Positions 10,854 through 45,049 are shown, counted from the first letter of the stretch. The stretch: DNA of 47,583 bases from Clostridiales bacterium (GCA_918285425.1 CAKJZE010000021.1:1-47583); one strand, 5' to 3'. Program-made: numbers and translations. The notes: generated by a model not told the origin, from the letters alone.

Positions 10854-10941
10854 GGAGAGATGGCTGAGCGGTCGAAAGCGGCGGTCTTGAAAACCGTTGA
10901 TGTGCAAGCATCCTGGGGTTCGAATCCCTATCTCTCCGCCA
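10854..10941 (+). tRNA. tRNA-Ser (anticodon UGA), CCA encoded
   Basis: Hand-folded. Acceptor GGAGAGA/TCTCTCC; anticodon stem GCGGT/ACCGT with loop CTTGAAA (anticodon TGA); long variable arm GATG...CATC; T arm TGGGG-TTCGAAT-CCCTA; discriminator G followed by CCA. Confidence 0.92.
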
Positions 10942-12460
10942 TTTGCGAATAATCCGAACCCTTGTGGTTTGGGTTATTCTTTTTTTGTTCAATATATTCA
11001 ATTTCTTTGTCAATAGCAGGTTGGTCTTTAATGTCAAGTTGAGTGCCCTTATCACCAGTTGCATTGTAATAAATTGTCATTGTTCCGTCATCAAAAAGCA
11101 CAACACGATTTACAAACAAATCAATCATTCTTTGTTTTGCCAAAGTGTTGTTTTCGTCTATATCTTTGAAAGAACATAAAAAGTCATAAACCAAATTTTC
11201 ATCAAGTGGTTTAATAATTGTTAATTGTCTAATTGAAATCTTTTCTTGTAGTTCTTTATTATTACTTTCAAGTTCTTTCATTCTTGCATTTGTTGTATCG
11301 TTAAAAACACCATTTTCAAGTGCACGCAAAAGATTTACAAGTTTCTTGTTATTCTCTTGCAATTCTTTATTCAAACTTTCAAGGATTTTGTCTTTTTCAA
11401 TGTCTTTGTTATAAACATTACACATAACTTTTGCAATTGAGTGTAAATTTGTATGTTGCAAAAAATATTTAGTCATAGATATTACTTTTGCTTCTATATT
11501 CTCTTGACTAATAGATTTTTTGTCGCAAATAGACTTGTTCTTTTTCTTTGCAAAGCATTTGTAATAATTGTATATCTTGCCAAGTTTACCTTTGCCACTA
11601 TCTCCTGTCATTAAAGCGCCACATTTGCCACAAATAAGTTTTCCACTTAAAATATAATTAACATCTGTTTTGTGGTGTGCAGAAGTGCGTTTTGAGGCCT
11701 TTAATTTTTCATTAACTTCGTCAAATATTTCGCTATCAATGATTTGTGGGAAAATGTTTGTATAGCAAGTGTCATCAGCAAACACACAACCTTTGTAATT
11801 TGGATTTCTCAAAACTCTTGAAACCGAGTTGATAGTCCATGCCTTGCCATAACTGTTTTTCATGCCTTTGTCTTGCAAAAGTTTGACAATATCTTTAATG
11901 AGCTTGCCACTCAAATATTCATTAAACATAAGGCGAACAATATTTGCTTGTTCTTCATTTATGGAAACTTTTAAATCTTTAACAACATAACCATAAGGAG
12001 TTGGACCACCAGTAAATTGTCCTTTAATTCTGCTTTCTTTAAGCCCACGCTTAACCTTTTGTGATAGTTCGGCAGAATAATACTCTGCAATACTTTCAAG
12101 CATACCTTCCAAAATAATGCCTTCTGGATTATCTGATATTTGTTCGGTTGCAGAAAGAAGTTTAACACCATTTTGCTTTAATATTGCTTTGTTCATAGCA
12201 CTGTCATATCTTGACCTTGCAAATCTATCAAACTTGTAAACCAAAACAAAATCAAAGCCCTTTTTCTTGCTGTCATATAGCATTTGTTGAAGTGCAGGAC
12301 GATTATCATTTGTTCCTGTCATAGCCCTGTCAATATATTCCTTAACAATAACCAAATCATTTCTTTCGGCATATTCTTTACAAACTCTAACTTGACCTTC
12401 AATACTTTGTTCAGTTTGATTGTCGCTTGAATATCTTGCATAAATAACAGCTTTTTTCAT
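10928..12460 (-). CDS. large serine recombinase (integrase type)
   Basis: 510 aa. N-terminal resolvase catalytic domain (AVIYARYSSDNQTEQSIEGQ), a recombinase domain, a Cys-rich zinc ribbon (CGKCGALMTG...YYKC) and a coiled-coil C-terminus. Confidence 0.9.
   Translation of the reverse strand: MKKAVIYARYSSDNQTEQSIEGQVRVCKEYAERNDLVIVKEYIDRAMTGTNDNRPALQQMLYDSKKKGFDFVLVYKFDRFARSRYDSAMNKAILKQNGVKLLSATEQISDNPEGIILEGMLESIAEYYSAELSQKVKRGLKESRIKGQFTGGPTPYGYVVKDLKVSINEEQANIVRLMFNEYLSGKLIKDIVKLLQDKGMKNSYGKAWTINSVSRVLRNPNYKGCVFADDTCYTNIFPQIIDSEIFDEVNEKLKASKRTSAHHKTDVNYILSGKLICGKCGALMTGDSGKGKLGKIYNYYKCFAKKKNKSICDKKSISQENIEAKVISMTKYFLQHTNLHSIAKVMCNVYNKDIEKDKILESLNKELQENNKKLVNLLRALENGVFNDTTNARMKELESNNKELQEKISIRQLTIIKPLDENLVYDFLCSFKDIDENNTLAKQRMIDLFVNRVVLFDDGTMTIYYNATGDKGTQLDIKDQPAIDKEIEYIEQKKNNPNHKGSDYSQMAER
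10947..10987 (+). terminator. Strong Rho-independent terminator immediately after tRNA-Ser
   Basis: A 14-bp stem, gaataatccgaacc (10947-10960) with ggtttgggttattc (10966-10979), loop cttgt, then TTTTTTT. It lies inside the 3' end of the recombinase ORF on the other strand. Confidence 0.75.
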
Positions 12461-14256: not shown

Positions 14257-14457
14257 ATGAGTATTTCGTATAACAAACTTTGGAAACTTTTGATTGATAA
14301 AAATATGACAAAAACAGATTTGAGATTGCAAGCTGATATCGCAACTTCCACTCTTGCTAAACTTAGTAAAAACGAACAAGTAAGCATGGAAGTTTTGCTT
14401 AAAATTTGTAAAACACTAGATTGCGATTTTGATGATATAATTGAGAGGGTTGATTAA
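14257..14457 (+). CDS. small HTH (XRE/Cro-like) protein, likely controller (C) protein of the R-M operon
   Basis: 66 aa (MTKTDLRLQADIATSTLAKLSKNEQVSMEVLLKICKTLDCDFDDII). First gene of the operon; its stop lies 1 nt before the methylase ATG. Confidence 0.75.
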   Translation: MSISYNKLWKLLIDKNMTKTDLRLQADIATSTLAKLSKNEQVSMEVLLKICKTLDCDFDDIIERVD

Positions 14458-14458
14458 T

Positions 14459-15370
14459 ATGTGTAAAGGAATTGCAAAACCATTTTTAAAATGGGCTGGC
14501 GGTAAAGGTCAACTGCTTAACAAGTTTGAAGAGATGTATCCACAGGAACTTATAAATGGCGAAATTGACACATACATTGAACCTTTTGTTGGTGGTGGTG
14601 CAGTTTTATTTGATGTCCTTCAAAAATATAAAATTAAAAAAGTGGTTATTGTTGACTTAAACAAAGAACTTGTAAATTGTTATCGTTGTATTAAAGCCGA
14701 TGTAAATGAACTTATAAAACATCTTAAAACTTTGCAAGATGAATTTTTATCACTGAGTGATGAAAAGAGGAAAGATTATTTCTTAAAAGTTAGAAATAGA
14801 TATAATGAAATTCATCTTAATGGGAAATATGATTTTGAAAAAGCCGCAGATTTCATTTTTTTAAATAAAACTTGTTTTAATGGTCTTTATAGAGTAAATA
14901 GCAAAGGTGAATTTAATGTCCCATTCGGTAAATATAAAAATCCATTGATTTGTGATAGCGAGAATTTAACTCTAATAAGCAAACTTTTACAAAATGTAGA
15001 AATAAGATTTGGAGATTATTCTATTTGTGAAGAATATGTAAATGGAAAAACTTTTATATACTTTGACCCACCTTATCGCCCACTTATAGAAAATTCATCA
15101 TTTGTTGGTTATGATAAATCTGGTTTTAATGATGACAATCAAAAAGAACTGGCTGAATTTGTAAAAAAACTTGATAAGCAAAATTGTTTAGTAATGCTTA
15201 GCAATTCAGATCCTAAAAACACTAATCCTGATGATAATTTCTTTGATGAACTTTACAAAGGATTTCAGATTGATAGAATCTTTGCAAAAAGAATGATAAA
15301 TTGCCAAGCAGATAAACGAGGAGATATAACTGAAATTGTTGTAAGAAATTACAAAAGGAGAAAATTTTAA
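14459..15370 (+). CDS. Dam/DpnM-type N6-adenine DNA methyltransferase (GATC class)
   Basis: PFLKWAGGKGQLL N-terminus, motif I EPFVGGGAV, motif IV FDPPY. The ATG at 14459 is preceded by GAGAGG. Confidence 0.88.
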   Translation: MCKGIAKPFLKWAGGKGQLLNKFEEMYPQELINGEIDTYIEPFVGGGAVLFDVLQKYKIKKVVIVDLNKELVNCYRCIKADVNELIKHLKTLQDEFLSLSDEKRKDYFLKVRNRYNEIHLNGKYDFEKAADFIFLNKTCFNGLYRVNSKGEFNVPFGKYKNPLICDSENLTLISKLLQNVEIRFGDYSICEEYVNGKTFIYFDPPYRPLIENSSFVGYDKSGFNDDNQKELAEFVKKLDKQNCLVMLSNSDPKNTNPDDNFFDELYKGFQIDRIFAKRMINCQADKRGDITEIVVRNYKRRKF

Positions 15371-16249
15371 ATGAGAAGTAAAACAATCAATGTTTTCTTA
15401 ATGGACGGAGACCCTACTTGCAAAATAAAATGCACATTGCAAAATTGGACTGGAATAGCTTATAAAATTCCAAGAACAATGCTAGAAGATTGCAAAGAGG
15501 GAGAAAAAGATATAGTTAAACATTTAAAACAGACAGGAATTTATTTTCTATTAGGAGAAGATTCCAATACAGGAAATAAAGCAATTTATGTTGGACAAGC
15601 TGTTTCTAGGAAAAATGGCGAAGGATTACTTTGTAGATTATTAGAACATAAAAGGAATATGAAGGAAAAATATTGGAATGACTGGAATGAAGTTATAGTT
15701 TTTACAACTCAAAATGATTCATTTGGTCCAACAGAAATTAGTTACCTTGAAAATAAATTTACTAATCTTGCTAGAAGTGCTGGAAGATATGAAGTAAAGA
15801 ATGGTAATGAGCCTAACCCAGGTAATATCACAGAAGAAAAAGAAAGTGAACTTTTAGAATATGTGGATTATGCTCGAATTATTATAGGAATGCTTGGACA
15901 TAAAGTTTTTGAACAATTAGTAAAATCAAATCCTCTTACGAATAAAGTTGATAGCCCTATCTTCTATTTTAAAGGCAAAATAAAAGCAACTGGCATTTTT
16001 ACCAATGAAGGTTTTGTCGTATTAAAAGGTTCTTCAATAAGTCCCAAGTTAAATCCAAGTGCACATAAATTCACAATTAAAGCAAGAGAAATGAACAAAA
16101 ACAAAATAGATGAAAATTATATTTTATTAGAAGATGTTTTGTTTACAAGCCCATCAGCAGCAGCCGGATTTGTAGGCGGTTCAAGTTTAAGTGGAAATGC
16201 AATGTGGGTAACAAGTTATGGCAAATCACCAAAAGATGTCGAATTATAA
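15371..16249 (+). CDS. GIY-YIG nuclease domain protein with a C-terminal DUF4357-like domain
   Basis: GIYFLLG...IYVGQA...RLLEH...ISYLE (GIY-YIG). C-terminal FVVLKGS...SPSAAAGFVGGSSLSGNAMW is recalled as the DUF4357 signature. Its ATG directly abuts the methylase stop. Confidence 0.7.
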   Translation: MRSKTINVFLMDGDPTCKIKCTLQNWTGIAYKIPRTMLEDCKEGEKDIVKHLKQTGIYFLLGEDSNTGNKAIYVGQAVSRKNGEGLLCRLLEHKRNMKEKYWNDWNEVIVFTTQNDSFGPTEISYLENKFTNLARSAGRYEVKNGNEPNPGNITEEKESELLEYVDYARIIIGMLGHKVFEQLVKSNPLTNKVDSPIFYFKGKIKATGIFTNEGFVVLKGSSISPKLNPSAHKFTIKAREMNKNKIDENYILLEDVLFTSPSAAAGFVGGSSLSGNAMWVTSYGKSPKDVEL

Positions 16250-16265
16250 AACATAGGAGAACATT

Positions 16266-17123
16266 ATGAAAAGAAATTTTAAAGAATGGTTAAATGATTT
16301 CACAGATAGTATTGCAACTTATGAATACTACACCGAATTTAATATAGTTTATAAAAACATTGATAAACTTAAAGTTGAACTTAACATTATGAATTCTCTT
16401 ATTGGTTCAAAGAATATTGAACAGGATTTTGATAATCTTTTCAAAAAATATCCAGAGATAAGGAAATGTTTGCCACTTCTTATTGCTGTTAGAGAAAATG
16501 AAATTAAAGTTATTGATGAAGGCGAAAAACTTAAATACAACTTCAAAACAATAGATGATATTGATTTACTAAAAAGGTTTATGAGAAAAACTGGGCTTTT
16601 TGACTTAATATCAAATCATTTAGTAAACAATCTTGTCGATTACACTACTGGAGTTGAAGTTGGACTTGGCTCAAATGGAAGAAAAAATCGTGGTGGACAT
16701 CTAATGGAAGATGTATTGCAAGGATATATTGAAAAAGCTGGATTTGTAAAAAATCAAACATATTTCAAAGAAATGTATTTGAGTGATATTGAGAAAAAAT
16801 GGAATATTGATTTATCAAAACTTTCTAATCTTGGCAAGGTAGCAAAAAGATTTGATTATGTTGTAAAAACAAAAAATTGTATTTATGCCTTTGAAACAAA
16901 CTTCTATTCAAGCAATGGCTCAAAATTAAATGAAACTGCAAGAAGCTATAAAATGCTTGCTGAAGAAAGTAAATATATTAAAGGATTTGCTTTTGTTTGG
17001 GTTACTGATGGTTTAGGTTGGCAAGGCGCTAAAAATAATCTTGAAGAAACATTTGATGTTTTAGATAACATCTTCAATCTAAAAGAATTGGAACAAGGTA
17101 AATTAAAGGAAATATTAAAATAA
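16266..17123 (+). CDS. DpnII/MboI-family type II restriction endonuclease (GATC)
   Basis: Long blocks match my recollection of R.DpnII: LNIMNSLIGSKNI, LVDYTTGVEVGLGSNGRKNRGG, GSKLNETARSYKM, WVTDGLGWQGAKNNLEETFD. Confidence 0.85.
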   Translation: MKRNFKEWLNDFTDSIATYEYYTEFNIVYKNIDKLKVELNIMNSLIGSKNIEQDFDNLFKKYPEIRKCLPLLIAVRENEIKVIDEGEKLKYNFKTIDDIDLLKRFMRKTGLFDLISNHLVNNLVDYTTGVEVGLGSNGRKNRGGHLMEDVLQGYIEKAGFVKNQTYFKEMYLSDIEKKWNIDLSKLSNLGKVAKRFDYVVKTKNCIYAFETNFYSSNGSKLNETARSYKMLAEESKYIKGFAFVWVTDGLGWQGAKNNLEETFDVLDNIFNLKELEQGKLKEILK

Positions 17124-17842
17124 TGCAAGAAGAATTTGAACTTGAAACTAACACCGTTTGGAGTTTTCCTAATCGTGGCAAATGGGCAACACATGATGCA
17201 AAATATCGTGGGAATTTTTCGCCCTATGTAGCAAAAAATATAATTTTGAGGTATTCACAACCAAACGATTATGTGTTAGATCAATTTGTTGGTGGTGGCA
17301 CCACTCTTGTCGAATGTAAGTTAAACAATAGAAATGCTATTGGAATTGATATAAACCCTAAAGCTGTTGAATTAACAAAAGAAAAACTTAATTTTGATTG
17401 CAATTTTTCAAACAATATAGAAGTTCAACTTGGCGATGCTTGTAACTTAAAAAATATTGATGACAATAGTATTGATTTAATTTGCACTCATCCACCTTAT
17501 GCAGACATTATCAAATATAGTGATGATATTGATGGCGATTTATCTCACTTAAAATACAAAGAGTTCTTGACTGCAATTGAAAAAGTTGCTAGTGAATGTT
17601 ATAGAGTGCTTAAAAAAGACAAATTTTGTGCTATTGTTATGGGAGATACTAGAAAAAAAGGCATGGTGCAACCACTTGGTTTTGAAGTTATGCAAAGATT
17701 TGTAAATGCCGGCTTTAAACAAAAAGAAATAATTATAAAAGAACAACACAATTGTAAAGCAACAGGTTTTTGGAAAACAAATAGTCAAAAATTTAATTTT
17801 TTACTTTTAGCACATGAATATATTTTTATATTTAAAAAATAA
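17123..17842 (+). CDS. second DNA methyltransferase (motif order X-I-IV, gamma-like)
   Basis: WSFP...THDAKYRGNFSPYVAKNIILRYSQPNDYVLDQFVGGGTT (motifs X and I), then CTHPPYADI (motif IV with His in the usual D/N/S position). Its start overlaps the endonuclease stop by 1 nt. Confidence 0.75.
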   Translation: MQEEFELETNTVWSFPNRGKWATHDAKYRGNFSPYVAKNIILRYSQPNDYVLDQFVGGGTTLVECKLNNRNAIGIDINPKAVELTKEKLNFDCNFSNNIEVQLGDACNLKNIDDNSIDLICTHPPYADIIKYSDDIDGDLSHLKYKEFLTAIEKVASECYRVLKKDKFCAIVMGDTRKKGMVQPLGFEVMQRFVNAGFKQKEIIIKEQHNCKATGFWKTNSQKFNFLLLAHEYIFIFKK

Positions 17843-19511: not shown

Positions 19512-21683
19512 ATGATTAATAAAATTGAGTTAAACAATATTGCTACATATAAGCATTGTGAAATATATCCTAAAAAAATTAATTATATTTATGGAGGTAA
19601 TGGCACAGGCAAAACTTCAATATCAAAATTTTTAGCAAATCCAGTAAATTATCCTACAAGCAATTTGACCACAGAAAATTATCCAATTGATATACTTGTA
19701 TATAATAAAGACTTTATAGAAGATAATTTTGATAAGGATAAATCAATAAAGGGAATATTTACAATTGGAGAAGAAAATAAAGAAATAGAAGAAAATATAA
19801 ACAAATTGTTAATAAAAAAAGAAGAAATCGAAAAACAAAAAACTATACGCATTAATAAAATTGAAGAATTTACCGAGAATGCAAAAACCTTGCATAACGA
19901 ATTTTGTAATAATTGTTGGACAATAAAAAAAGTTGCAGAACCATATAAAAAATCTATAAGTGGTGTTTTAAATTCTAGAGAAGCATTTGCCGAAATGTGC
20001 GATAAGAACTTTTTAAATACAAAAACAACGACAGAACTTGGTTCATTTGATGAAAGATACAAAATGCTATATGAGACACATATGCAAGTATATAATAAGT
20101 TTTCAGAATTAGAATTTACAAGATTATCTGAAATTGAAAACAATTCTCTATTAAATAAAAGTATCATAGCAAAGGAAGATAATCCACTGTCGTCTATAAT
20201 TCAAAAGTTAAACAATAGTGACTGGATTAAACAAGGTGTAGAATATTTAGATAGCACTCATAACATTTGCCCATTTTGTCAAAGAGAACTAACAGCCAAA
20301 ACGATAAAGGATTTAGAGAATTTATTTGATGAAGAATATGACAAAAATATGAATGAATTAAAAACACTAAACGATGAATATCAGAAATTATCAAATAGTT
20401 TAATTCTCAATATGGAAAATGTTGCTCAAACTTCTTATCAAATATTAGATTATTCAGGCATAAGTACATTATTATTAGAAATAAAGTCTGTAATAAAAGA
20501 CAATATAAAGCTTTTAAATGATAAAATAAAGTTTCCTTCAAATAAGATTGAATTAAATAAAACTAATAATTTATTGAACCAAATAAATTCTGTGATTAAA
20601 GAATACAATAGAATAATTAAAAGAAATAATGAACTATCTTCTAAGCAATTACAAGAAAAGAATAAGTTAAGCAATGATATATGGCAAGCGATTTCAAATA
20701 ATTATCTTTATGAAACCATAAATGAATATAGGAAAAAGAGTGAAGGAATTAAATCTGCGACTCATAAAATGATGATGGAAAGAGACTCTTATGCTCAAGA
20801 CATTGCCGAAATAGAAATAGAGATTAACAATTTGCAATCCAAAGTATCTACTATTGACAACGCGATTAATGAAATAAATAAAATATTAAAAGGGTTTGCT
20901 TTTACAGGTTTTTATTTGCGTAAAGCTAAAGATAATAGAAATTATGAAATAATTCGCGAAGATGGGAGTAATGCAAAAGATACATTAAGTGAGGGTGAAG
21001 AACGTTTTATTACATTTCTCTATTTTATTCAATTAATAAATGGCAATGTAGAAAATAAAAGAACAATAAATAAAAAAGTTGTAGTAATAGATGACCCCAT
21101 TTCAAGTCTTGATAGCAATATTATATTTATTGTAAGTTCTCTTGTAAAAGAGATTATAAACAATTGCATCAATAGCAACAATTTAATAGATCAAGTTATA
21201 GTATTAACACATAACATCTATTTTCATCATCAAATTAGTTTCAGACCAAAAAGTAATCAATTGTCACCTAATTTGTTTTCATTTTTTACAATCCATAAAA
21301 AAGATAATCTTTCAACAATTGAACAATCTCAAAAGAATTTGATTCAAACATCATATGAACTTTTATGGCAGGAAATAAAGCAGCCAGAAATAACAAGTAG
21401 GGCTAATATATTCAACTCAATGAGAAGAATTTTAGAATATTATTTTGATATTATTGGTGGGTTAGACTATGATAATCTTATATCTACATTTACCGGCGAA
21501 GACAAAATTATTTGTAATTCTTTAATTTCTTTTGTAAATGCTAATTCACATTCTATTGCAGATGATTTTGTTATTGGATTTAGTGAAGAAGATATAGACA
21601 AATATTTAGTTGTCTTTAAAAAAATATTTATTAATAGTAATCATAAAGCACATTACGAAATGATGATGTCTAGAGAATACTAA
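19512..21683 (+). CDS. RloC/PrrC-like anticodon nuclease (AAA_13-type ABC-like ATPase with zinc-hook coiled coil)
   Basis: Walker A GGNGTGKTS; long Lys/Glu/Asn-rich coiled coil containing CPFC; LSEGEERF signature; Walker B VVVIDDPISSLD; LTHN; C-terminal MRRILEYYF ... NANSH, resembling the PrrC Arg-Glu-His nuclease triad. Confidence 0.7.
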   Translation: MINKIELNNIATYKHCEIYPKKINYIYGGNGTGKTSISKFLANPVNYPTSNLTTENYPIDILVYNKDFIEDNFDKDKSIKGIFTIGEENKEIEENINKLLIKKEEIEKQKTIRINKIEEFTENAKTLHNEFCNNCWTIKKVAEPYKKSISGVLNSREAFAEMCDKNFLNTKTTTELGSFDERYKMLYETHMQVYNKFSELEFTRLSEIENNSLLNKSIIAKEDNPLSSIIQKLNNSDWIKQGVEYLDSTHNICPFCQRELTAKTIKDLENLFDEEYDKNMNELKTLNDEYQKLSNSLILNMENVAQTSYQILDYSGISTLLLEIKSVIKDNIKLLNDKIKFPSNKIELNKTNNLLNQINSVIKEYNRIIKRNNELSSKQLQEKNKLSNDIWQAISNNYLYETINEYRKKSEGIKSATHKMMMERDSYAQDIAEIEIEINNLQSKVSTIDNAINEINKILKGFAFTGFYLRKAKDNRNYEIIREDGSNAKDTLSEGEERFITFLYFIQLINGNVENKRTINKKVVVIDDPISSLDSNIIFIVSSLVKEIINNCINSNNLIDQVIVLTHNIYFHHQISFRPKSNQLSPNLFSFFTIHKKDNLSTIEQSQKNLIQTSYELLWQEIKQPEITSRANIFNSMRRILEYYFDIIGGLDYDNLISTFTGEDKIICNSLISFVNANSHSIADDFVIGFSEEDIDKYLVVFKKIFINSNHKAHYEMMMSREY

Positions 21684-21792
21684 CTATTGTTTTCACCCAC
21701 CCAGCGCCTACAAATATTCTAGGGTTAGGATTGGATTGCGCCCGCTCCGCCAATCGTAACCTAAATCGAACCACTCGATTTGGGTTTATTTT
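21684..21792 (+). repeat. 3' junction element R1 (conserved ~65-nt core + private terminator hairpin)
   Basis: Starts at the stop codon of 19512-21683. Core ...CCACCCAGCGCC..TAGGGTTAGGATTGGAT..GCTCCGCCA. Hairpin 21758-21769/21775-21786 followed by a T-rich tail. Confidence 0.85.
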
Positions 21793-22982: not shown

Positions 22983-23483
22983 ATGAAAAAAGGATGGAGA
23001 ATTGTAATATTAGTTGTTTGCATTCTTATAGCTATAGCAATACCAGTAATAACTATCATTCACTATTACAACATTGATATTGCTAGCATTTGGTCAACAT
23101 GGGGATTGCAAGAAGATAATACAACGATAAATTTGCCAGATACTGTAAACTACATAAAGCTATTATGGTATAAAAGTTCAATTTATATTGTTCCGCCAAT
23201 TTTCATTTTTATTGGATTAACTATCTTAAATCATAAACAAATAAACCTTAAAAAAAAGTGGTATTTTTATCTAATCCAAGGCTTTTCATTTTGGTATATA
23301 TCATTGCTTATGATTAAATTATTTTGTAATGAGATTTTGGAGTTAGATAGATGTTATAATATAACCTTCTTTAATGGTATAGAATCAATGCAATTACTTG
23401 TTGGTTATATAGTTTCGTTTATATTAAAAAGCAATATAGAATTAAACAAACCATATAGTGATGAAGTTAAAAAATTGAAATAA
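22983..23483 (+). CDS. hypothetical membrane protein (about 4 TM segments)
   Basis: The ATG at 22983 lies 1 nt after the upstream stop and is preceded by GGAG. Hydrophobic segments include IVILVVCILIAIAIPVITII, IYIVPPIFIFIGLTIL and FYLIQGFSFWYISLLMI. Confidence 0.6.
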   Translation: MKKGWRIVILVVCILIAIAIPVITIIHYYNIDIASIWSTWGLQEDNTTINLPDTVNYIKLLWYKSSIYIVPPIFIFIGLTILNHKQINLKKKWYFYLIQGFSFWYISLLMIKLFCNEILELDRCYNITFFNGIESMQLLVGYIVSFILKSNIELNKPYSDEVKKLK

Positions 23484-23590
23484 CTATTTTTAGCCACCCA
23501 GCACCAACATATATTTTAGGGTTAGAATTGGATAGCGTTGTTCTCGCCAAGCATAACGTAAATCTTATGAACTATGATTTGCGTTTTTTG
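23484..23590 (+). repeat. 3' junction element R2
   Basis: Begins at the stop codon. Core CCACCCAGCACC..TAGGGTTAGAATTGGAT..TTCTCGCCA. Hairpin 23555-23564/23576-23585 followed by a T-run. Confidence 0.85.
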
Positions 23591-23726: not shown

Positions 23727-24113
23727 ATGGATAGAAACGAGACTGAACCTATCGCAAAGGATTTGATAGATAAAGCAAGAGAGCTGATGAAAGATGTTAA
23801 TGTTACATTTGATGAAGATTTTTGGGCTTATACAGCATTTGATAGAAAATGGAGACGTAAACCTGAATTTTGCTGTGGCAAAAAGAAAGAGTTGCTTGAC
23901 CAAATTTATGATGTAATAGGCAATTTGGACTACAATTCAACAATACATCTATTTGCACATATAACATCTGCTGAAATTGCTGCAGAACTACAAATGAAAG
24001 CTAAAGACGGATGGAAAAATCCTGCTGCACTCGATAAAAAAGCGTGTATATTATTGAGAAATGTGCGATCAAAAGTTGAATACGAAAAGAGCGAAACAAA
24101 TATAAAAATTTAA
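23727..24113 (+). CDS. hypothetical protein (128 aa)
   Basis: AAGGA RBS. No recognised motif. Followed by junction element R3. Confidence 0.55.
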   Translation: MDRNETEPIAKDLIDKARELMKDVNVTFDEDFWAYTAFDRKWRRKPEFCCGKKKELLDQIYDVIGNLDYNSTIHLFAHITSAEIAAELQMKAKDGWKNPAALDKKACILLRNVRSKVEYEKSETNIKI

Positions 24114-24222
24114 AATTTTATTTAACCAAACCACTACCGATATATATTTGGGTGTTAGAAATGGATAACATCGGCTCCGCCAGAAATTGTCTAAACATTC
24201 TATGTTTGTACAATTTTTTTTA
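24114..24222 (+). repeat. 3' junction element R3 (most diverged copy)
   Basis: Core CCAAACCACTACC..GGGTGTTAGAAATGGAT..GGCTCCGCCA. Hairpin 24186-24198/24202-24214 followed by T8. Confidence 0.75.
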
Positions 24223-24278: not shown

Positions 24279-24734
24279 ATGAAAAATAAAGTGGGGCAAT
24301 ATGGCGTCATAAACAAAACTGGAAAAATTGGCAGTTCTGCTGTATTGTACAAAACTACAGATCCCGAATTTTGGAAAAATATAGAAAAGGGTATAAAATC
24401 ATCTGTAAAATCCGTAATTAATATTGGCTATGAAACATATAGTTCATGCCAAGGCCATAGAGGTACATTATATAATAAAAGGACTTTAACCGTTATTTTG
24501 TCAAATGAAGAAATAGATATTTGGATTTATTTTTTAGATACTTTAAATATTTTCTTTTTGACAGATCATCCAATTACATATCTTTTAATTCCAAAAAGTG
24601 ATAACAAAACAAATATCATGATTAATTTTGGAGATATTGAAAACAAAAAATGTGTAAAAATTAATCAGAAATATTTTAATAAGTTTGTGACAGTAATAAA
24701 TAAGCTCAAATTTGTTTGCGATGATATTTCTTGA
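24279..24734 (+). CDS. hypothetical protein (151 aa) upstream of the radical SAM gene
   Basis: ORF only. The start is uncertain (track start 24246 is non-ATG) and the RBS is weak. No motif recognised. Confidence 0.4.
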   Translation: MKNKVGQYGVINKTGKIGSSAVLYKTTDPEFWKNIEKGIKSSVKSVINIGYETYSSCQGHRGTLYNKRTLTVILSNEEIDIWIYFLDTLNIFFLTDHPITYLLIPKSDNKTNIMINFGDIENKKCVKINQKYFNKFVTVINKLKFVCDDIS

Positions 24735-24759
24735 CTAAATGTATCAGATGATGTATAAT
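24731..24759 (+). promoter_or_regulatory. near-consensus sigma-70 promoter for the radical SAM gene
   Basis: TTGACT (24731-24736), exactly 17 nt, TATAAT (24754-24759). Confidence 0.65.
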
Positions 24760-24785: not shown

Positions 24786-25895
24786 ATGAAAAAATTTAAA
24801 AGTTTAAATGTATTAATAAAACCAACTAATGGTTGTAATTTAAGATGTAAATATTGCTTTAATAATGAATATTCTACAGAAATGTTGAATATGAATGATT
24901 TTAAAAAACTCATATCTTTGTTAACAAAAAGATACAATAGTATAAGTATAATTTGGCATGGCGGCGAACCTACATTGTGGGGCTATGAAAATTTTAAAAA
25001 GGCAAATGATATTATAAAAAAATATTCTAAAAAAACAAAATTTTATCAGTGTATTCAATCTAATTGCGTTCATATTGATGATAAATTAATTGATTTCTTC
25101 ATTGAAAATAATATTTCAATTGGTTCATCTTTTGATGGAATTGATAATGACAAAACAAGAGGTTGTACAACGCAATATCTAAATACGATTGAAAAGTTAA
25201 ATAATAAAGGTATGCATGTGGGTGCTATCTGTGTAATAACACAACAAAATATAAATTCATTGTTGGATAATTATAATTATTTTAAACAAAGAAACCAATC
25301 CCTTAATTTAAGACCTATGATTAATTCAGGAGAAGCATTAAAAAATGCAGATGTTTATTCTGTGGATATAGAAGCATATATAGATAGTTTAAAAAAACTA
25401 CTTGAAGTATGGTTTTATGATACAACTTGCAATATTAAATTGCAACCATTCGAAACATTTTTGAATATGTTATTATACAAAAAAACATCAGTTTGCTGTT
25501 ATAATTCTTGTTTAACAAAGTGGCTCTGTCTTGAATCAAATGGTGATATTACACCATGTAACAGATGGTTCCCTTCAGAATATAAATATGGGAATATTAA
25601 AGAAATAAAATCTATCAAACAAATTTTTAAATCTGAAGGTTTAAAAAATCTTCTTGTTAAAGCTATTAAAAGAAGAGAAAAGTGTAAAGAGAATTGTGAA
25701 TATTTTGATGTTTGCAATGGTGGTTGTAATAATGAAGCACTTGTAAGTGGTGATATATCAAATAATGATATGCCAACATGTAAAATATTAAAAGCAATAA
25801 TACCCGATCTTAAGATATTAATTTCAAATGTAGAGGATATAAATAAGATTAATCCAAAAATTAAAGAGAGAGTGGGAAAATACATTAATCAGTAA
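24786..25895 (+). CDS. radical SAM enzyme with C-terminal SPASM-type auxiliary cluster domain (peptide maturase type)
   Basis: CNLRCKYC (CxxxCxxC) at residues 17-24. C-terminal Cys-rich region: CCYNSC...CLESNGDITPC...CKENCEYFDVCNGGC. Confidence 0.88.
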   Translation: MKKFKSLNVLIKPTNGCNLRCKYCFNNEYSTEMLNMNDFKKLISLLTKRYNSISIIWHGGEPTLWGYENFKKANDIIKKYSKKTKFYQCIQSNCVHIDDKLIDFFIENNISIGSSFDGIDNDKTRGCTTQYLNTIEKLNNKGMHVGAICVITQQNINSLLDNYNYFKQRNQSLNLRPMINSGEALKNADVYSVDIEAYIDSLKKLLEVWFYDTTCNIKLQPFETFLNMLLYKKTSVCCYNSCLTKWLCLESNGDITPCNRWFPSEYKYGNIKEIKSIKQIFKSEGLKNLLVKAIKRREKCKENCEYFDVCNGGCNNEALVSGDISNNDMPTCKILKAIIPDLKILISNVEDINKINPKIKERVGKYINQ

Positions 25896-25926: not shown

Positions 25927-25956
25927 TTGACAAAATGATAGTTTTAATGGTAAACT
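25927..25956 (+). promoter_or_regulatory. candidate promoter in front of the precursor genes
   Basis: TTGACA, 18 nt, TAAACT, about 20 nt upstream of an AAGGAG RBS. Confidence 0.5.
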
Positions 25957-25978: not shown

Positions 25979-26143
25979 ATGTTTAGTATTAAAAATTTAA
26001 TTAAAAAATATAAAAAGCAATCATTAAAATTAGCGTATGCATATAATGATAGTGGAAAACACACAGATCACGAAGATCATATCGATCATGATACACGTTT
26101 GGGTCACGTTGATCATGATGATCATACGGATTGGACTGATTAA
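25979..26143 (+). CDS. 54-aa putative RiPP precursor peptide 1 (His/Asp-rich core); not in the ORF track
   Basis: AAGGAG 7 nt upstream of the ATG. Product: MFSIKNLIKKYKKQSLKLAYAYNDSGKHTDHEDHIDHDTRLGHVDHDDHTDWTD. Its leader is shared with the next ORF. Confidence 0.7.
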   Translation: MFSIKNLIKKYKKQSLKLAYAYNDSGKHTDHEDHIDHDTRLGHVDHDDHTDWTD

Positions 26144-26174
26144 TTTCAAAATATTACATTATGGAGAACTTACT

Positions 26175-26300
26175 ATGTTTAATTTCAAAAAGCTATTAAA
26201 AAAATATAATAAACAAATATTAAAACCAGCTTATACAAATTGCAATTTTGAGCATGTAGATCACGATGCTCAATTTGGTCATATTGATAATGGCCAATAG
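26175..26300 (+). CDS. 41-aa putative RiPP precursor peptide 2
   Basis: GGAGAA RBS 8 nt upstream of the ATG at 26175. Product: MFNFKKLLKKYNKQILKPAYTNCNFEHVDHDAQFGHIDNGQ. The track shows it only as the tail of an 87-aa ORF starting at 26037, whose N-terminal part overlaps peptide 1 out of frame. Confidence 0.7.
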   Translation: MFNFKKLLKKYNKQILKPAYTNCNFEHVDHDAQFGHIDNGQ

Positions 26301-26346: not shown

Positions 26347-26378
26347 AAAAACAAGCATTTTTATATGCTTGTTTTTTG
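26347..26378. terminator. Bidirectional terminator
   Basis: aaaacaagcat-ttttat-atgcttgtttt with flanking A and T runs, between convergent genes. Confidence 0.75.
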
Positions 26379-26395
26379 TATTTAAATAGATTCTT

Positions 26396-27052
26396 TTAAT
26401 TGGATCTTATTTTTATTTTGTATAAAATAAGAGAAGTAAGATATCCAAAACTCATGACAATGATGCCGCATACAAATGCAATAAGCAAGCCTTTTTGTGC
26501 AAAGGCGTACCAATCATAGTAAAGGTCAACGCTGCCATTATTAAAGTGAGAGCATACAACACTGAGATAAAAGATTGCATATAAAGTGAGATGTGAAATC
26601 CCCCAAAGTGAATCCTTAAGTTTGAACTTTTGTGTGTTTTCATAAAAGACAAAGCTTATCAAATTAAGAACTGGTATTGCAAAGTGGTAAAAGAAGTTGG
26701 CGTTCGCGTACATAGAGAAATAGCCTTCTTCCACTATAAAGCCAAGGAACAGGGCAACCACAAGGAAGGTTATAATAAGGTCAACAGTTGCAATATATCT
26801 TAAAATGTTTATGGTTTTTGGAATAACCTTTTTTGTTTTGTTTTCACGCAGCAGAAAGATTATATACAAAAGGGAAGTGATACCGGCAAGCACATTGGAT
26901 TGAACGGTGAAAAATTTAAACAATTTGAATCCATGCTCAATTGGCTTGGTTGCAACAATATATATTTCGCCAAAGCAAAAAATACTTCCCACAACTGCCA
27001 TGACAAAAATTATAATATTTAAAACTAATGCTATCTTTTGTTTTTTATTCAT
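26396..27052 (-). CDS. polytopic membrane protein (Pr6Pr-family-like)
   Basis: Six or so hydrophobic segments. The FTVQSNVL motif is recalled from the Pr6Pr family. Confidence 0.55.
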   Translation of the reverse strand: MNKKQKIALVLNIIIFVMAVVGSIFCFGEIYIVATKPIEHGFKLFKFFTVQSNVLAGITSLLYIIFLLRENKTKKVIPKTINILRYIATVDLIITFLVVALFLGFIVEEGYFSMYANANFFYHFAIPVLNLISFVFYENTQKFKLKDSLWGISHLTLYAIFYLSVVCSHFNNGSVDLYYDWYAFAQKGLLIAFVCGIIVMSFGYLTSLILYKIKIRSN

Positions 27053-27227
27053 AACAAGTTAATTGTAAAATAAATTTCTTAAGCTTGTCAATAATAAAAT
27101 TGAAAAATTGTATTGAGTTTTTATGTATTGATTTAATTATAATATAAATTCAAGTTCTGATATTTTTATAAAAAACATGACAATACTATTATTTGGTGCT
27201 ATAATAAGGATCAAAGGTAATTATCAT

Positions 27228-27539
27228 ATGAAAGTCAGAATTGTATTATCAGGACTGGGTAGACTTGAAACATTTATTATTAAAGAAGAAAATTCAAGTT
27301 TTATTTCGCCATCAGTATCTAGAAATATTGATACTGAAAAATTTTTTATTGAATTTAGAGAGGTAATTAAAAATTGGCCTGAAGAAATGGAAAATGGCTC
27401 TGTTCAAGATGGTTTAAATTGTGTGATTATGTTTAAAGATAATGACGAGCATGTGTTTATGTTCAACAATAAATTCCCAGATAATTTTGAAAAATTAGTA
27501 AATCTATTAAGGAGTTATGAAAATGGCAGCATTAACTAA
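27228..27539 (+). CDS. hypothetical protein (103 aa)
   Basis: ATG at 27228 after AAAGG. Upstream promoter-like ATGACA, 17 nt, TATAAT. Confidence 0.45.
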   Translation: MKVRIVLSGLGRLETFIIKEENSSFISPSVSRNIDTEKFFIEFREVIKNWPEEMENGSVQDGLNCVIMFKDNDEHVFMFNNKFPDNFEKLVNLLRSYENGSIN

Positions 27540-28830
27540 AGAGGGTATAAAAAATATAAGAGAAAGCATAATTGGTGATGATAAAAAACAATTGATTCAG
27601 GATAAGATTGCTAAATATTATATATCTATTGAAGAGAGTAAAGGTAAACCTGTTTCTGAGGAAAGAAAAACAGAAATAAACAACAATGTTCAAAAAATTG
27701 TTCAAAATATCAAGTACACAGTTATACCTATCAATGTTGGAGAATTTAATATAAATAGTTTCATCTCAAAACAACAAGGTTTAACGACAGAGCAAAAAAC
27801 TGAATTATCAAGTAATGCTGAGAGTATAATGAGAACTTATAGCAGTAAAAGTCCAGTAAAAATTTTCAAAGACAATGTTGTCGAAGCTTTTGGCTACAAA
27901 AAGGAAGATTTATATATTAAAGAACCTGGAATGATAATGACAAGACCTGGGCCTAAATATGAAGAGTTTATGACTTTAATGAAAAATATAGTAGAGGCAA
28001 ATACCGATCCGACAAACAATTCTGGAATGGAACACGATATCAATGTTATTGCTCAAGAATATAATAAAAATCCTATGTCAATACAAAACTACTTTAGCCA
28101 ATTAAGGAATCATAATTCTGGTGGATATTGCGATCAAAGGGAATCATATGAACCGATTGAAATAGTTATCAATGCGGGTGGCAATACTGCAATTTCAACT
28201 GTAGTACATGAAACTATGCATGCTATGTCATATCATAGTTATCCTGATGGTTCTTGTAAGTCAGGCTTTAATACTTCAGCTGAAAAAAATCAATATGGAT
28301 ATAGAAAATATCAGCTTTTTAATGAAGTTGTGAATGAATATTTGACACAGAAAGTTATGGGTAATTTTTCTGATGAAGATTGCGCAAAGTTTGGTATACA
28401 TAAAGAAAGTAAAAACGTTTATCAACAACTTATACCTCTTGTAAGTGATGTGCTTGACAAAAATGAAAATTTACTTATAGATTGTTTACTTTCTAATAAT
28501 CCTATGAAATTTAAAGAGATCATAGGTCATGAAAATTTTGAAACAATTGTGGATAAACTTACACTCATTGATGGTAAATTCAATTTTAAATATTATGGAA
28601 ATGAAAATCAAACATTGATTGATCTTTGTGAAAGTAAAGTGAGTCAAAACCCAAATTTTCAAATAGGTGATGAAAAATTTTCAATATCATCTGTTAAAAA
28701 TAATCTTGATTTTTTTAAATCCACTTTTTCAGGAAATAAAGAAATAATGGAAGTATTAAATGCCATTTCAGACCTTGACAATACATGTAAAAAAGTCAAT
28801 AGTAACAATACAAGTTTTGAAATGGAGTAA
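27523..28830 (+). CDS. hypothetical protein with an HExxH zinc-metallopeptidase-like motif
   Basis: VVHETMHAMSYH. AAGGAG 8 nt before the ATG at 27523. Overlaps the upstream ORF by 17 nt. Confidence 0.55.
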   Translation: MAALTKEGIKNIRESIIGDDKKQLIQDKIAKYYISIEESKGKPVSEERKTEINNNVQKIVQNIKYTVIPINVGEFNINSFISKQQGLTTEQKTELSSNAESIMRTYSSKSPVKIFKDNVVEAFGYKKEDLYIKEPGMIMTRPGPKYEEFMTLMKNIVEANTDPTNNSGMEHDINVIAQEYNKNPMSIQNYFSQLRNHNSGGYCDQRESYEPIEIVINAGGNTAISTVVHETMHAMSYHSYPDGSCKSGFNTSAEKNQYGYRKYQLFNEVVNEYLTQKVMGNFSDEDCAKFGIHKESKNVYQQLIPLVSDVLDKNENLLIDCLLSNNPMKFKEIIGHENFETIVDKLTLIDGKFNFKYYGNENQTLIDLCESKVSQNPNFQIGDEKFSISSVKNNLDFFKSTFSGNKEIMEVLNAISDLDNTCKKVNSNNTSFEME

Positions 28831-44752: not shown

Positions 44753-44796
44753 ATTGCATATTTATTCACATATTTTGGTGCGTTGCACATCATTTT

Positions 44797-45049
44797 TTGA
44801 AACCAAACACCGAAGCGGTAACAATGCAGTTAACTCCCCCAAAGCTACCTTGTGGCGCATGACCGCGCCTGTTTAGTGCTGCTGCCGCAAAGCTCTGACA
44901 CGGTTCACAAGTGGCCATCCCACAAGACCTTGATATCATCATCACTTACACCATTCAGCCTTCCATGCTTGACCCCGAGAAATGCATTCAGCCCTGCTAT
45001 AGCGGATCTCAGGATAAGGGCACCGCTGGCTCCCCACCTAGTGCAACGC
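44797..45049 (-). ncRNA. ffs: signal recognition particle RNA, long Bacillus type (Alu domain + S domain); ends approximate
   Basis: The reverse complement reads GGGGAGCCAGCGGUGCCCUUAUCCUGAGAUCCGCUAUAGCAGGGCUGAAU..UCUCGGGGUC and ..GAACCGUGUCAG....CAGCAGCACUAAAC. This parallels my recollection of B. subtilis scRNA (GGGGAGGUAGCGGUGCCCUGUACCUGCAAUCCGCUCUAGCAGGGCCGAAU; CAUGUCAGGUCCGGAAGGAAGCAGCAUUAAG). GC-rich relative to its surroundings. Confidence 0.8.

Follow-up and report, generated by a model that had tools for sequence, protein, structure and literature searches.

Triceptides are three-residue cyclophane peptides, made on ribosomes and modified after translation (RiPPs), whose precursors carry a repeated aromatic1-X2-X3 motif and are encoded beside a SPASM enzyme of about 370 amino acids. 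The enzymes of this class include XncB, OscB, MscB, YxdB, HaaB, YhhB, HtkB, ChlB and MicB. They accept His at position 1 and form His C2-Cβ rings on HAA (HaaB, ScaB), HNR (YhhB), HTK (HtkB) and HAS (MicB), and they accept Asp at position 3, with Tyr C3 joined to Asp Cβ by YxdB on YxD and Trp C7 joined to Asp or Asn Cβ by OscB, which thereby accepts Trp-x-Asp (PMC11002830, PMC11499958, PMC12912966). The motifs may be separated by spacers, as are YSK, HAS and FTK in MicA (PMC12912966). DynA (NF041298) is a small SPASM enzyme that lacks a recognition domain and joins His N-tau to Cβ across three residues (PMC11002830). It makes one C-N bond plus one Trp-Asn C-C bond, and its substrate has no repeated unit. 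The anaerobic sulfatase-maturating enzyme (anSME; PDB 4K36-4K39; TIGR03942) has a three-cluster architecture and starts by abstracting a peptide Cβ-H, and it forms no crosslink. Here we describe a gene cassette in a stretch of 47,583 nucleotides from a Clostridiales bacterium (GCA_918285425.1, CAKJZE010000021.1:1-47583), the whole of which is called the window below. The cassette encodes a radical S-adenosylmethionine (SAM)/SPASM enzyme and two short peptides with repeated His-x-Asp units, and it is best filed as an uncharacterised member of the triceptide-like crosslinked RiPPs with a DynA/anSME-like SPASM enzyme. No His-x-Asp radical SAM RiPP was found in the literature searched, which did not cover a JACS 2022 triceptide survey that may already list an HxD cluster.

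The cassette is best explained as a minimal RiPP unit in which one radical SAM/SPASM maturase is followed by two precursor peptides. The maturase gene (24786-25895, plus strand) encodes 369 amino acids and was identified with Pfam, NCBIfam, AlphaFold2 and Foldseek. The two precursor open reading frames (ORFs) lie 3' of it on the same strand, and 83 nt separate the end of the enzyme gene from the start of peptide 1 (25979-26143, 54 amino acids). Peptide 1 is MFSIKNLIKKYKKQSLKLAYAYNDSGK-HTDHEDHIDHDTRLGHVDHDDHTDWTD. Its leader (25979-26059) contains the motif L-x-x-x-Y-x-x-Q, and AAGGAG stands 8 nt before its ATG. The core and stop codon occupy 26060-26143, and the codons from 26060 (CAC ACA GAT ... 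TGG ACT GAT TAA) read HTD-HED-HID-HDT-RLG-HVD-HDD-HTD-WTD-stop. H or W comes first in 8 of 9 triplets and D comes last in 7 of these 8, which gives seven aromatic-x-Asp units, six with His and one with Trp. Peptide 2 (26175-26300, 41 amino acids) is MFNFKKLLKKYNKQILKPAYTNCNFE-HVDHDAQFGHIDNGQ. Its leader (26175-26252) has a Y-x-x-Q as well and GGAG before the ATG. After NFE it reads HVD-HDA-QFG-HID-NGQ-stop, with the last residue at 26297 and the stop codon at 26298-26300. Its core and stop (26253-26300) contain two HxD units nine residues apart within an H-x-D-x-D-A-Q-x-G-H-(I/V)-D-N block. The block H(I/V)D-HD(T/A)-x(L/F)G-H(V/I)D is common to peptides 1 and 2, and His plus Asp make up 60-70% of the cores. 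The original prediction had read the triplets of both peptides, their shared block and the counts of eight and seven in peptide 1 from the DNA alone, and all of these readings were exact.

The proposal that these small ORFs are open merely by chance, or have nothing to do with the enzyme, is scarcely credible. It could appeal to their shortness, to the lack of a Pfam or NCBIfam match for either peptide and to the motif count of peptide 2, which alone is not significant (13955 of 200000 permutations). Against it, each gene is preceded by a Shine-Dalgarno sequence (AAGGAG, GGAG), homologues occur in 17 representative clusters, and every fetched locus adjoins an enzyme gene. The closest relative is L001, a Logan assembly contig whose enzyme is 75% identical and whose gene order of enzyme, peptide 1 and peptide 2 (L001:1527-1667) is the same. 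Peptide 1 differs from its L001 counterpart by 17 synonymous-only codon changes and 12 amino-acid-changing ones, and peptide 2 by 11 and 5. The homologous peptide 1 core in L001 is HTDHNDHIDVDHRLGHTDHDDHTDW, and the peptide 2 core is identical in amino acids despite synonymous changes. Because synonymous-only changes outnumber amino-acid-changing ones, the peptide genes are under purifying selection at the protein level. Around the cassette, L001 and the window share 77% identity in the membrane protein and 82% in the short-chain dehydrogenase, so the cassette has diverged in step with its surroundings.

The pattern in the cores is non-random. When the 27-residue core of peptide 1 was permuted, seven in-register [HW]xD triplets arose in 0 of 200000 trials, and seven in any register arose in 41 of 200000. 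Across the six frames of the window, at least three HxD units within 30 residues occur in one place only. A tandem-repeat or microsatellite artefact at the DNA level was rejected, as Tandem Repeats Finder sees none in the peptide genes. The spacing of the unit was analysed in six distinct precursors chosen only by their adjacency to the seven closest enzyme homologues. In this set, Asp stands two residues after His 22 times where 5.8 would be expected (z 8.1, 0 of 10000 shuffles). The offsets +1, +3, +4, +5 and +6 are not enriched and lie at or under expectation; at +4, for example, 6 were observed against 5.3 expected. Since the enrichment is confined to +2, the pattern cannot be put down to His/Asp content alone, and the i,i+2 relation between His and Asp must be under selection.

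The seven closest enzyme homologues with fetched contigs (P0002-P0008, 44-75% identity) each adjoin one or two small genes whose products end in HxD units, and the adjacency of enzyme and precursor is kept in L001-L004 and L165-L169. Examples of cores in close homologues are ...RCAHIDSDHLDFDAQPGHIDNDNHVDQNK; ...ACAHTDWFEHFDYGEQSDHVDYLDHTDHN; ...SHSDWHNDVDYQSGHTDHHCD...; ...AHTDFHIDSYFKDGECD...HHADSHHDF; and ...VHVDTYWDVPHLDVDTTAGHRDNDGHNDHTDYYED. The leader motif Y-x-x-Q (Y11, Q14) is invariant in 16 aligned precursors and is present in 17 of 20 leaders of the family. In the same alignment neither H34 nor D36 ever changes, and the residue between them varies (I, V, L, F, N, T), which is the aromatic1-X2-X3 pattern. 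The alignment retains the block H-x-D-x-D-A-Q-x-G-H-(I/V)-D-N, with the distance from His to His fixed at nine residues. No Pfam or NCBIfam family matched any of 12 precursors. The close family is rare, with 15 clusters in a word-indexed search of 5.8 billion proteins and 17 at E ≤ 0.001 in an exhaustive hidden Markov model search of 1.84 billion representatives.

The original prediction took the cores to be strings of three-residue units in a common register. The aromatic/His-x-Asp unit, its +2 spacing and its link to a radical SAM/SPASM enzyme stood up to comparison, and a global register and the HDT and HDA triplets did not. The gaps between successive units are 3 (48 cases), 4 (23), 5 (16), 6 (12) and also longer, arrangements such as HID-SD-HLD, HTD-F-HID and HSD-W-HND break the register, and a continuous register is found in peptide 1 and L001 only. 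The first position of HDT and HDA is not conserved as aromatic; homologues have F, V, Y, S, A or Q there. Since triceptide motifs are independent and separated by spacers, as in MicA, the loss of register does not refute the mechanism.

More distant relatives widen the unit. Gut genomes, metagenomes, an archaeon and phages encode enzymes at 26-42% identity that accompany precursors with (H/Y/W/F)-x-(D/E/N) repeats. Their cores mix His with Tyr, Trp and Phe, as in HYDEHTDRWVDE...HCDVHTDAD; YPEYGEYSEYLDYHDYSD; WDEWDEVDYGDTWDEYDNYTEWDEDD; and YFSEYYDYSDYSDSD. The window has one unit without His at position 1, WTD, and relatives have YWD, WVD, YLD and FTD. Four relatives at 27-35% enzyme identity (L010, L153, L154, L172) have Y-x-D/E precursors, and the window enzyme and the YxdB-type Y-x-D systems may belong to the same superclade. 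Some precursors are very long, with more than 20 H/Y/W-x-D units: those at L101:1644-1991 and L086 (~1590-1990) have 115 and ~130 amino acids and contain repeated blocks such as DYDDHSDWCRDRHDDWG. A second enzyme branch, at L013:4097-4595 (a Woesearchaeota metagenome-assembled genome, MAG) and also in L132, L136, L149, L151 and L164, has aromatic-x-Asp cores with a different leader of the type I-E-F-x-G...N-x-x-L-R-R; the precursors lie downstream and are duplicated at some loci. Relatives at ~23-27% identity, at L047:1563-1742 (Desulfospira joergensenii) and L161:448-618, have eight in-register W-x-N triplets (WNNWMNWMNWRNWVNW...), so contiguous triplet strings occur elsewhere in the superfamily.

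The enzyme matches the Pfam Radical_SAM model at 2e-16 and is the single CxxxCxxC protein encoded in the whole window. Its CxxxCxxC motif spans residues 17-24, and with the motif starting at residue 17 there is no N-terminal leader-recognition domain. Ten cysteines are invariant in 75 homologues (C17, C21, C24, C237, C242, C258, C300, C304, C310, C314), and C332 is conserved in at least 90% of them. The SPASM cysteines align with the auxiliary-cluster cysteines of anSME, and both auxiliary-cluster sets are kept. Arg125 and Arg296 do not vary in the family either, and a contact between them and the Asp carboxylate would parallel HtkB D214 and HaaB H204 at the X3 pocket. The AlphaFold2 model has a mean pLDDT of 94.4. 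In Foldseek comparisons over the full length, the predicted fold matches anSME with a TM score of 0.81 and the complex of ChlB with its leader (9GM3) with 0.77, and the match to the sactisynthase CteB scores 0.75. In a neighbour-joining enzyme tree the window falls in a clade dominated by His, which lies within the aromatic-x-acid family, with the W-x-N-type systems outside, and the same-clade relatives include pure Y-x-D/E strings. The sequence comparisons support assignment of the enzyme to what would be a crosslink-forming, DynA/anSME-like radical SAM/SPASM lineage.

Several known systems were considered as a home for the enzyme. The generic SPASM domain model is the sole NCBIfam model that it passes (41.4 bits, cutoff 27). 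DynA is its best curated match at 174.9 bits, far below the cutoff of 450, and the dynobactin precursor and its Photorhabdus host are unrelated; the enzyme was therefore rejected as a DynA. The next model is anSME at 165.9 bits against a cutoff of 349. The enzyme was rejected as an anSME on this score, on the Asn that replaces Asp after the third SPASM Cys, and because no Cys/Ser-x-Pro-x-Arg motif or sulfatase gene occurs in the neighbourhood. TIGR04083 follows at 156.5 bits. Daropeptides, which have ether crosslinks on aromatic1-X2-aromatic3 motifs, were rejected on the scores of DarW (125 bits) and DarE (112 bits) against cutoffs of 650, and on position 3, which is Asp here and not aromatic. 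The PapB ranthipeptide maturases are radical SAM/SPASM enzymes too and take hydrogen from Asp Cβ in a repeated motif, but the window enzyme reaches 71 of the 340 bits that the PapB model demands, and the window cores lack Cys. The His-Xaa-Ser (Hxs) system, which the original prediction had mentioned, shares radical SAM maturation and a repeated tripeptide of His, any residue and a small or polar residue. It does not fit: Hxs needs HxsD and a pair of radical SAM enzymes, HxsB and HxsC, whereas the window has one CxxxCxxC protein, the HxsB model gives 64 of the 370 bits required, and position 3 is Asp here and Ser there. When eight relatives were run against NCBIfam, DynA was the top or a near-top model (158-288 bits) and no cutoff was passed; DynA is the best model for the window enzyme and six of the eight, and anSME is marginally ahead in L010 and L047.

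The locus resembles triceptides in its core motifs (seven plus two units of aromatic1-X2-X3), in the maturase gene beside the precursors and in the predicted fold. It differs in the pairing of His with Asp, in the run of up to seven mostly contiguous units, in the conserved H-x-D-x-D-A-Q-x-G-H-x-D block and in an enzyme closer to DynA and anSME; the crosslink here is predicted only. The enzyme falls outside the sequence families of the cyclophane synthases, with scores of 39 bits for XyeB (cutoff 450), 88 for GrrM/OscB (310), 50 for FxsB (370), 83 for YhhB (445) and 96 for AmcB (425).

These comparisons suggest a mechanism. The enzyme would recognise the L-x-x-x-Y-x-x-Q leader directly, with no separate recognition domain. 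SAM would be cleaved reductively, and hydrogen would be taken from the Asp Cβ at position 3 of each (His/Trp)-x-Asp unit. The resulting carbon radical would add to the ring of the residue at i-2, an auxiliary Fe-S cluster would take up the electron and the ring would rearomatise. Each unit would thus become one three-residue macrocycle with a mass change of -2 Da. Peptide 1 would have up to seven of these and peptide 2 two, and the non-conserved HDT and HDA sites could give one further ring each. The likely bond joins His C2 to Asp Cβ, by analogy with HaaB, HtkB, YhhB and MicB. Removal of the leader and export of the product are presumed to follow. We consider it probable that the maturase makes His/Trp-to-Asp three-residue crosslinks in both peptides after abstraction of the Asp Cβ-H.

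Unit and enzyme could be as proposed and the bond a C-N bond instead, with His N-tau joined to Asp Cβ as in dynobactin to give N-alkylimidazole rings. DynA, which forms such a bond to a Cβ two residues away (PMC11002830), tops the curated models in the window enzyme (174.9 bits) and in six of eight relatives, but all of these scores are far under its cutoff of 450. The His-containing three-residue rings characterised in triceptides (HaaB, YhhB, HtkB, MicB) are all C2-linked, and the Trp, Tyr and Phe found at position 1 in relatives must react via carbon. A C-N bond is accordingly judged rather unlikely here.

The original prediction had itself offered a second reading, a metal-chelating peptide rich in His and Asp in which the enzyme performs another modification, such as epimerisation or hydroxylation. 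The ringless modifications considered here are epimerisation, Asp beta-hydroxylation or thiolation, and an anSME-like oxidation. We hold this reading to be unlikely, though not negligible. The His and Asp content of the cores fits it, and peptides of this composition could bind metals whatever the modification. The closest solved relative of the enzyme is anSME (about 25% identity; 4e-31, profile 4e-56). Ringless radical SAM chemistry at Asp Cβ exists in the methylthiolation by RimO, and enzymes that form three-residue cyclophanes (3-CyFEs) can be promiscuous. Composition does not explain the exclusive +2 spacing, however, and His is replaced in relatives by Trp, Phe and Tyr, which are aromatic but not metal ligands. 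The selected +2 relation together with this exchange for non-ligand aromatics favours residues that close a ring over residues that simply chelate metal. The enzymes also differ just after the third SPASM Cys, with Asn259 in the window clade and Asp277 in anSME (PC-N-R aligned with PC-D-F). Asp277 is the residue that Goldman and colleagues are said to have proposed in 2013 as the catalytic base for formylglycine formation. The Cys/Ser-x-Pro-x-Arg sulfatase motif is lacking, and the epimerases YydG and EpeE are weak matches only (~1e-4).

A third possibility is another ring topology, with larger rings through the second Asp of H-x-D-x-D, links between units or PapB-like thioethers from Cys to Asp Cβ. 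It would draw on the conserved H-x-D-x-D and nine-residue H...H spacing, on PapB scores that rise from 71 bits here to 141 bits in relatives, and on a Cys that stands 1-5 residues before the first HxD in several homologues (RCAH, ACAH, YCKAH), with NCNFEH in peptide 2. Peptide 1 and several homologues (P0149, P0152, P0156) are without any Cys, and the +4 offset from His to Asp is not enriched (6 against 5.3), so that we regard such topologies as very improbable.

Several observations weigh against crosslinking within independent His/Trp-x-Asp units. The enzyme lies under every curated family cutoff, those of all the cyclophane synthases included, and even DynA reaches 175 bits of the required 450. 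In sequence it stands closer to anSME, a formylglycine-forming enzyme that makes no crosslink, than to ChlB (9GM3), which it matches at 1e-5. The third unit is E-C-D or E-C-N, not H-x-D, in two homologues. No protease or exporter is conserved beside the cassette in the loci compared. The conserved H-x-D-x-D-A-Q-x-G-H-x-D block suggests a constraint beyond three-residue units that act separately; with its fixed nine-residue His spacing, this extra constraint is left unexplained by independent three-residue rings.

The cassette has candidate signals for its own expression. A promoter-like site (TTGACT-17-TATAAT, 24731-24759, plus strand) lies 5' of the radical SAM gene and agrees with the consensus at 11 of 12 positions; it is a consensus match only. 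A second (TTGACA-18-TAAACT with TG, 25927-25956, plus strand, 10 of 12 matches) lies in the gap between the enzyme gene and peptide 1, and TTGACA occurs at the matching place in L001. The count of promoter-like sites in the region is not above shuffle expectation. A hairpin like a bidirectional intrinsic terminator closes the cassette (26347-26376, 12-pair stem, T runs on both strands) and would also serve the convergent membrane-protein gene (26396-27052, minus strand). Terminator-like sites number 4 in the region against 1.0 expected. Two ORFs without a family match (120 and 437 amino acids; 27177-28830) lie between the membrane-protein and dehydrogenase genes, which are adjacent in L001.

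On its other side, the cassette is separated by 13.8 kb from a tRNA-Ser gene (10854-10941), and the interval has 25-29% GC. It encodes a large serine recombinase (10928-12460, minus strand), a DpnII restriction-modification system with two methylases (14441-17842), an AAA_13 ATPase (19512-21683), a Schlafen-like helicase and small unknown genes. In L001 the enzyme gene begins ~80 nt after a tRNA 3' end (L001:1-112), of which the 29 nt present are identical to the window tRNA-Ser. Because the cassette adjoins the tRNA in L001 and lies 13.8 kb from it in the window, the cassette is the resident and the island was inserted between it and the tRNA-Ser. A search for a direct repeat (12 nt or more) of the 3' end of this tRNA, which could mark an att site, gave none, one inverted 12-mer aside. 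The island also contains an intergenic element of ~70 nt in three plus-strand copies, each after a small gene (21671-21740, 23468-23537 and 24101-24170; 76% and 60% identity). A terminator-like hairpin follows each copy, the core TAGGGTTAGNATTGGATNGCG occurs twice against 0.01 expected, and no Rfam family matches the element.

The host is an uncultured low-GC member of the Bacillota. The window contains a large bacterial signal recognition particle RNA (44783-45046, minus strand; Rfam RF01854, 139.9 bits), which fits a Bacillota host. The phosphoketolase of the window shares 70-76% identity with proteins from gut MAGs, among them Ca. Onthoplasma and Ca. Caccovivens. Four window proteins were found in the protein collection, and each is the sole member of its 90% cluster. 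Apart from uncultured gut Bacillota, the family occurs only in some archaea and in phages. Several related cassettes belong to mobile elements, and two of these sit in phage lysis modules, in the order holin, endolysin, enzyme, precursor at L171:663-3200 and precursor, enzyme, holin, endolysin at L172:2650-5292. Another lies between a small terminase/HNH region and a helicase (L169:1232-5795), and in L166 and L167 the neighbours are Rep, integrase and resolvase genes. The lack of an exporter in the phage-borne relatives could be due to release of their product at lysis.

Taken at its widest, the picture is of a rare and often mobile DynA-related clade, with no family model of its own, that installs an undescribed bond between His imidazole and Asp Cβ up to seven times in a row. 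The outcome would be a rigid ladder of imidazole rings with free carboxylates, perhaps a peptide of uncultured gut Clostridia that binds metals or has some other activity, and in the phage-borne relatives it would be freed at lysis. We offer this wider picture as possible but doubtful. The locus opens up no new category of biology, and its interest lies mainly in its being a well-defined target for co-expression. The hosts and phages of the family are poorly sampled by genome mining of isolates. If the prediction is true, His-Asp pairing would be added to the crosslink repertoire of the triceptides. The seven units of peptide 1, which follow one another almost without a break, would make it a small peptide of unusually dense cyclisation, rich in free carboxylates and imidazole nitrogens. 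A further gain would be an enzyme clade placed between anSME, DynA and the classical cyclophane synthases, and such a clade would be useful for studies of how ring partner and bond type are chosen and for peptide engineering.

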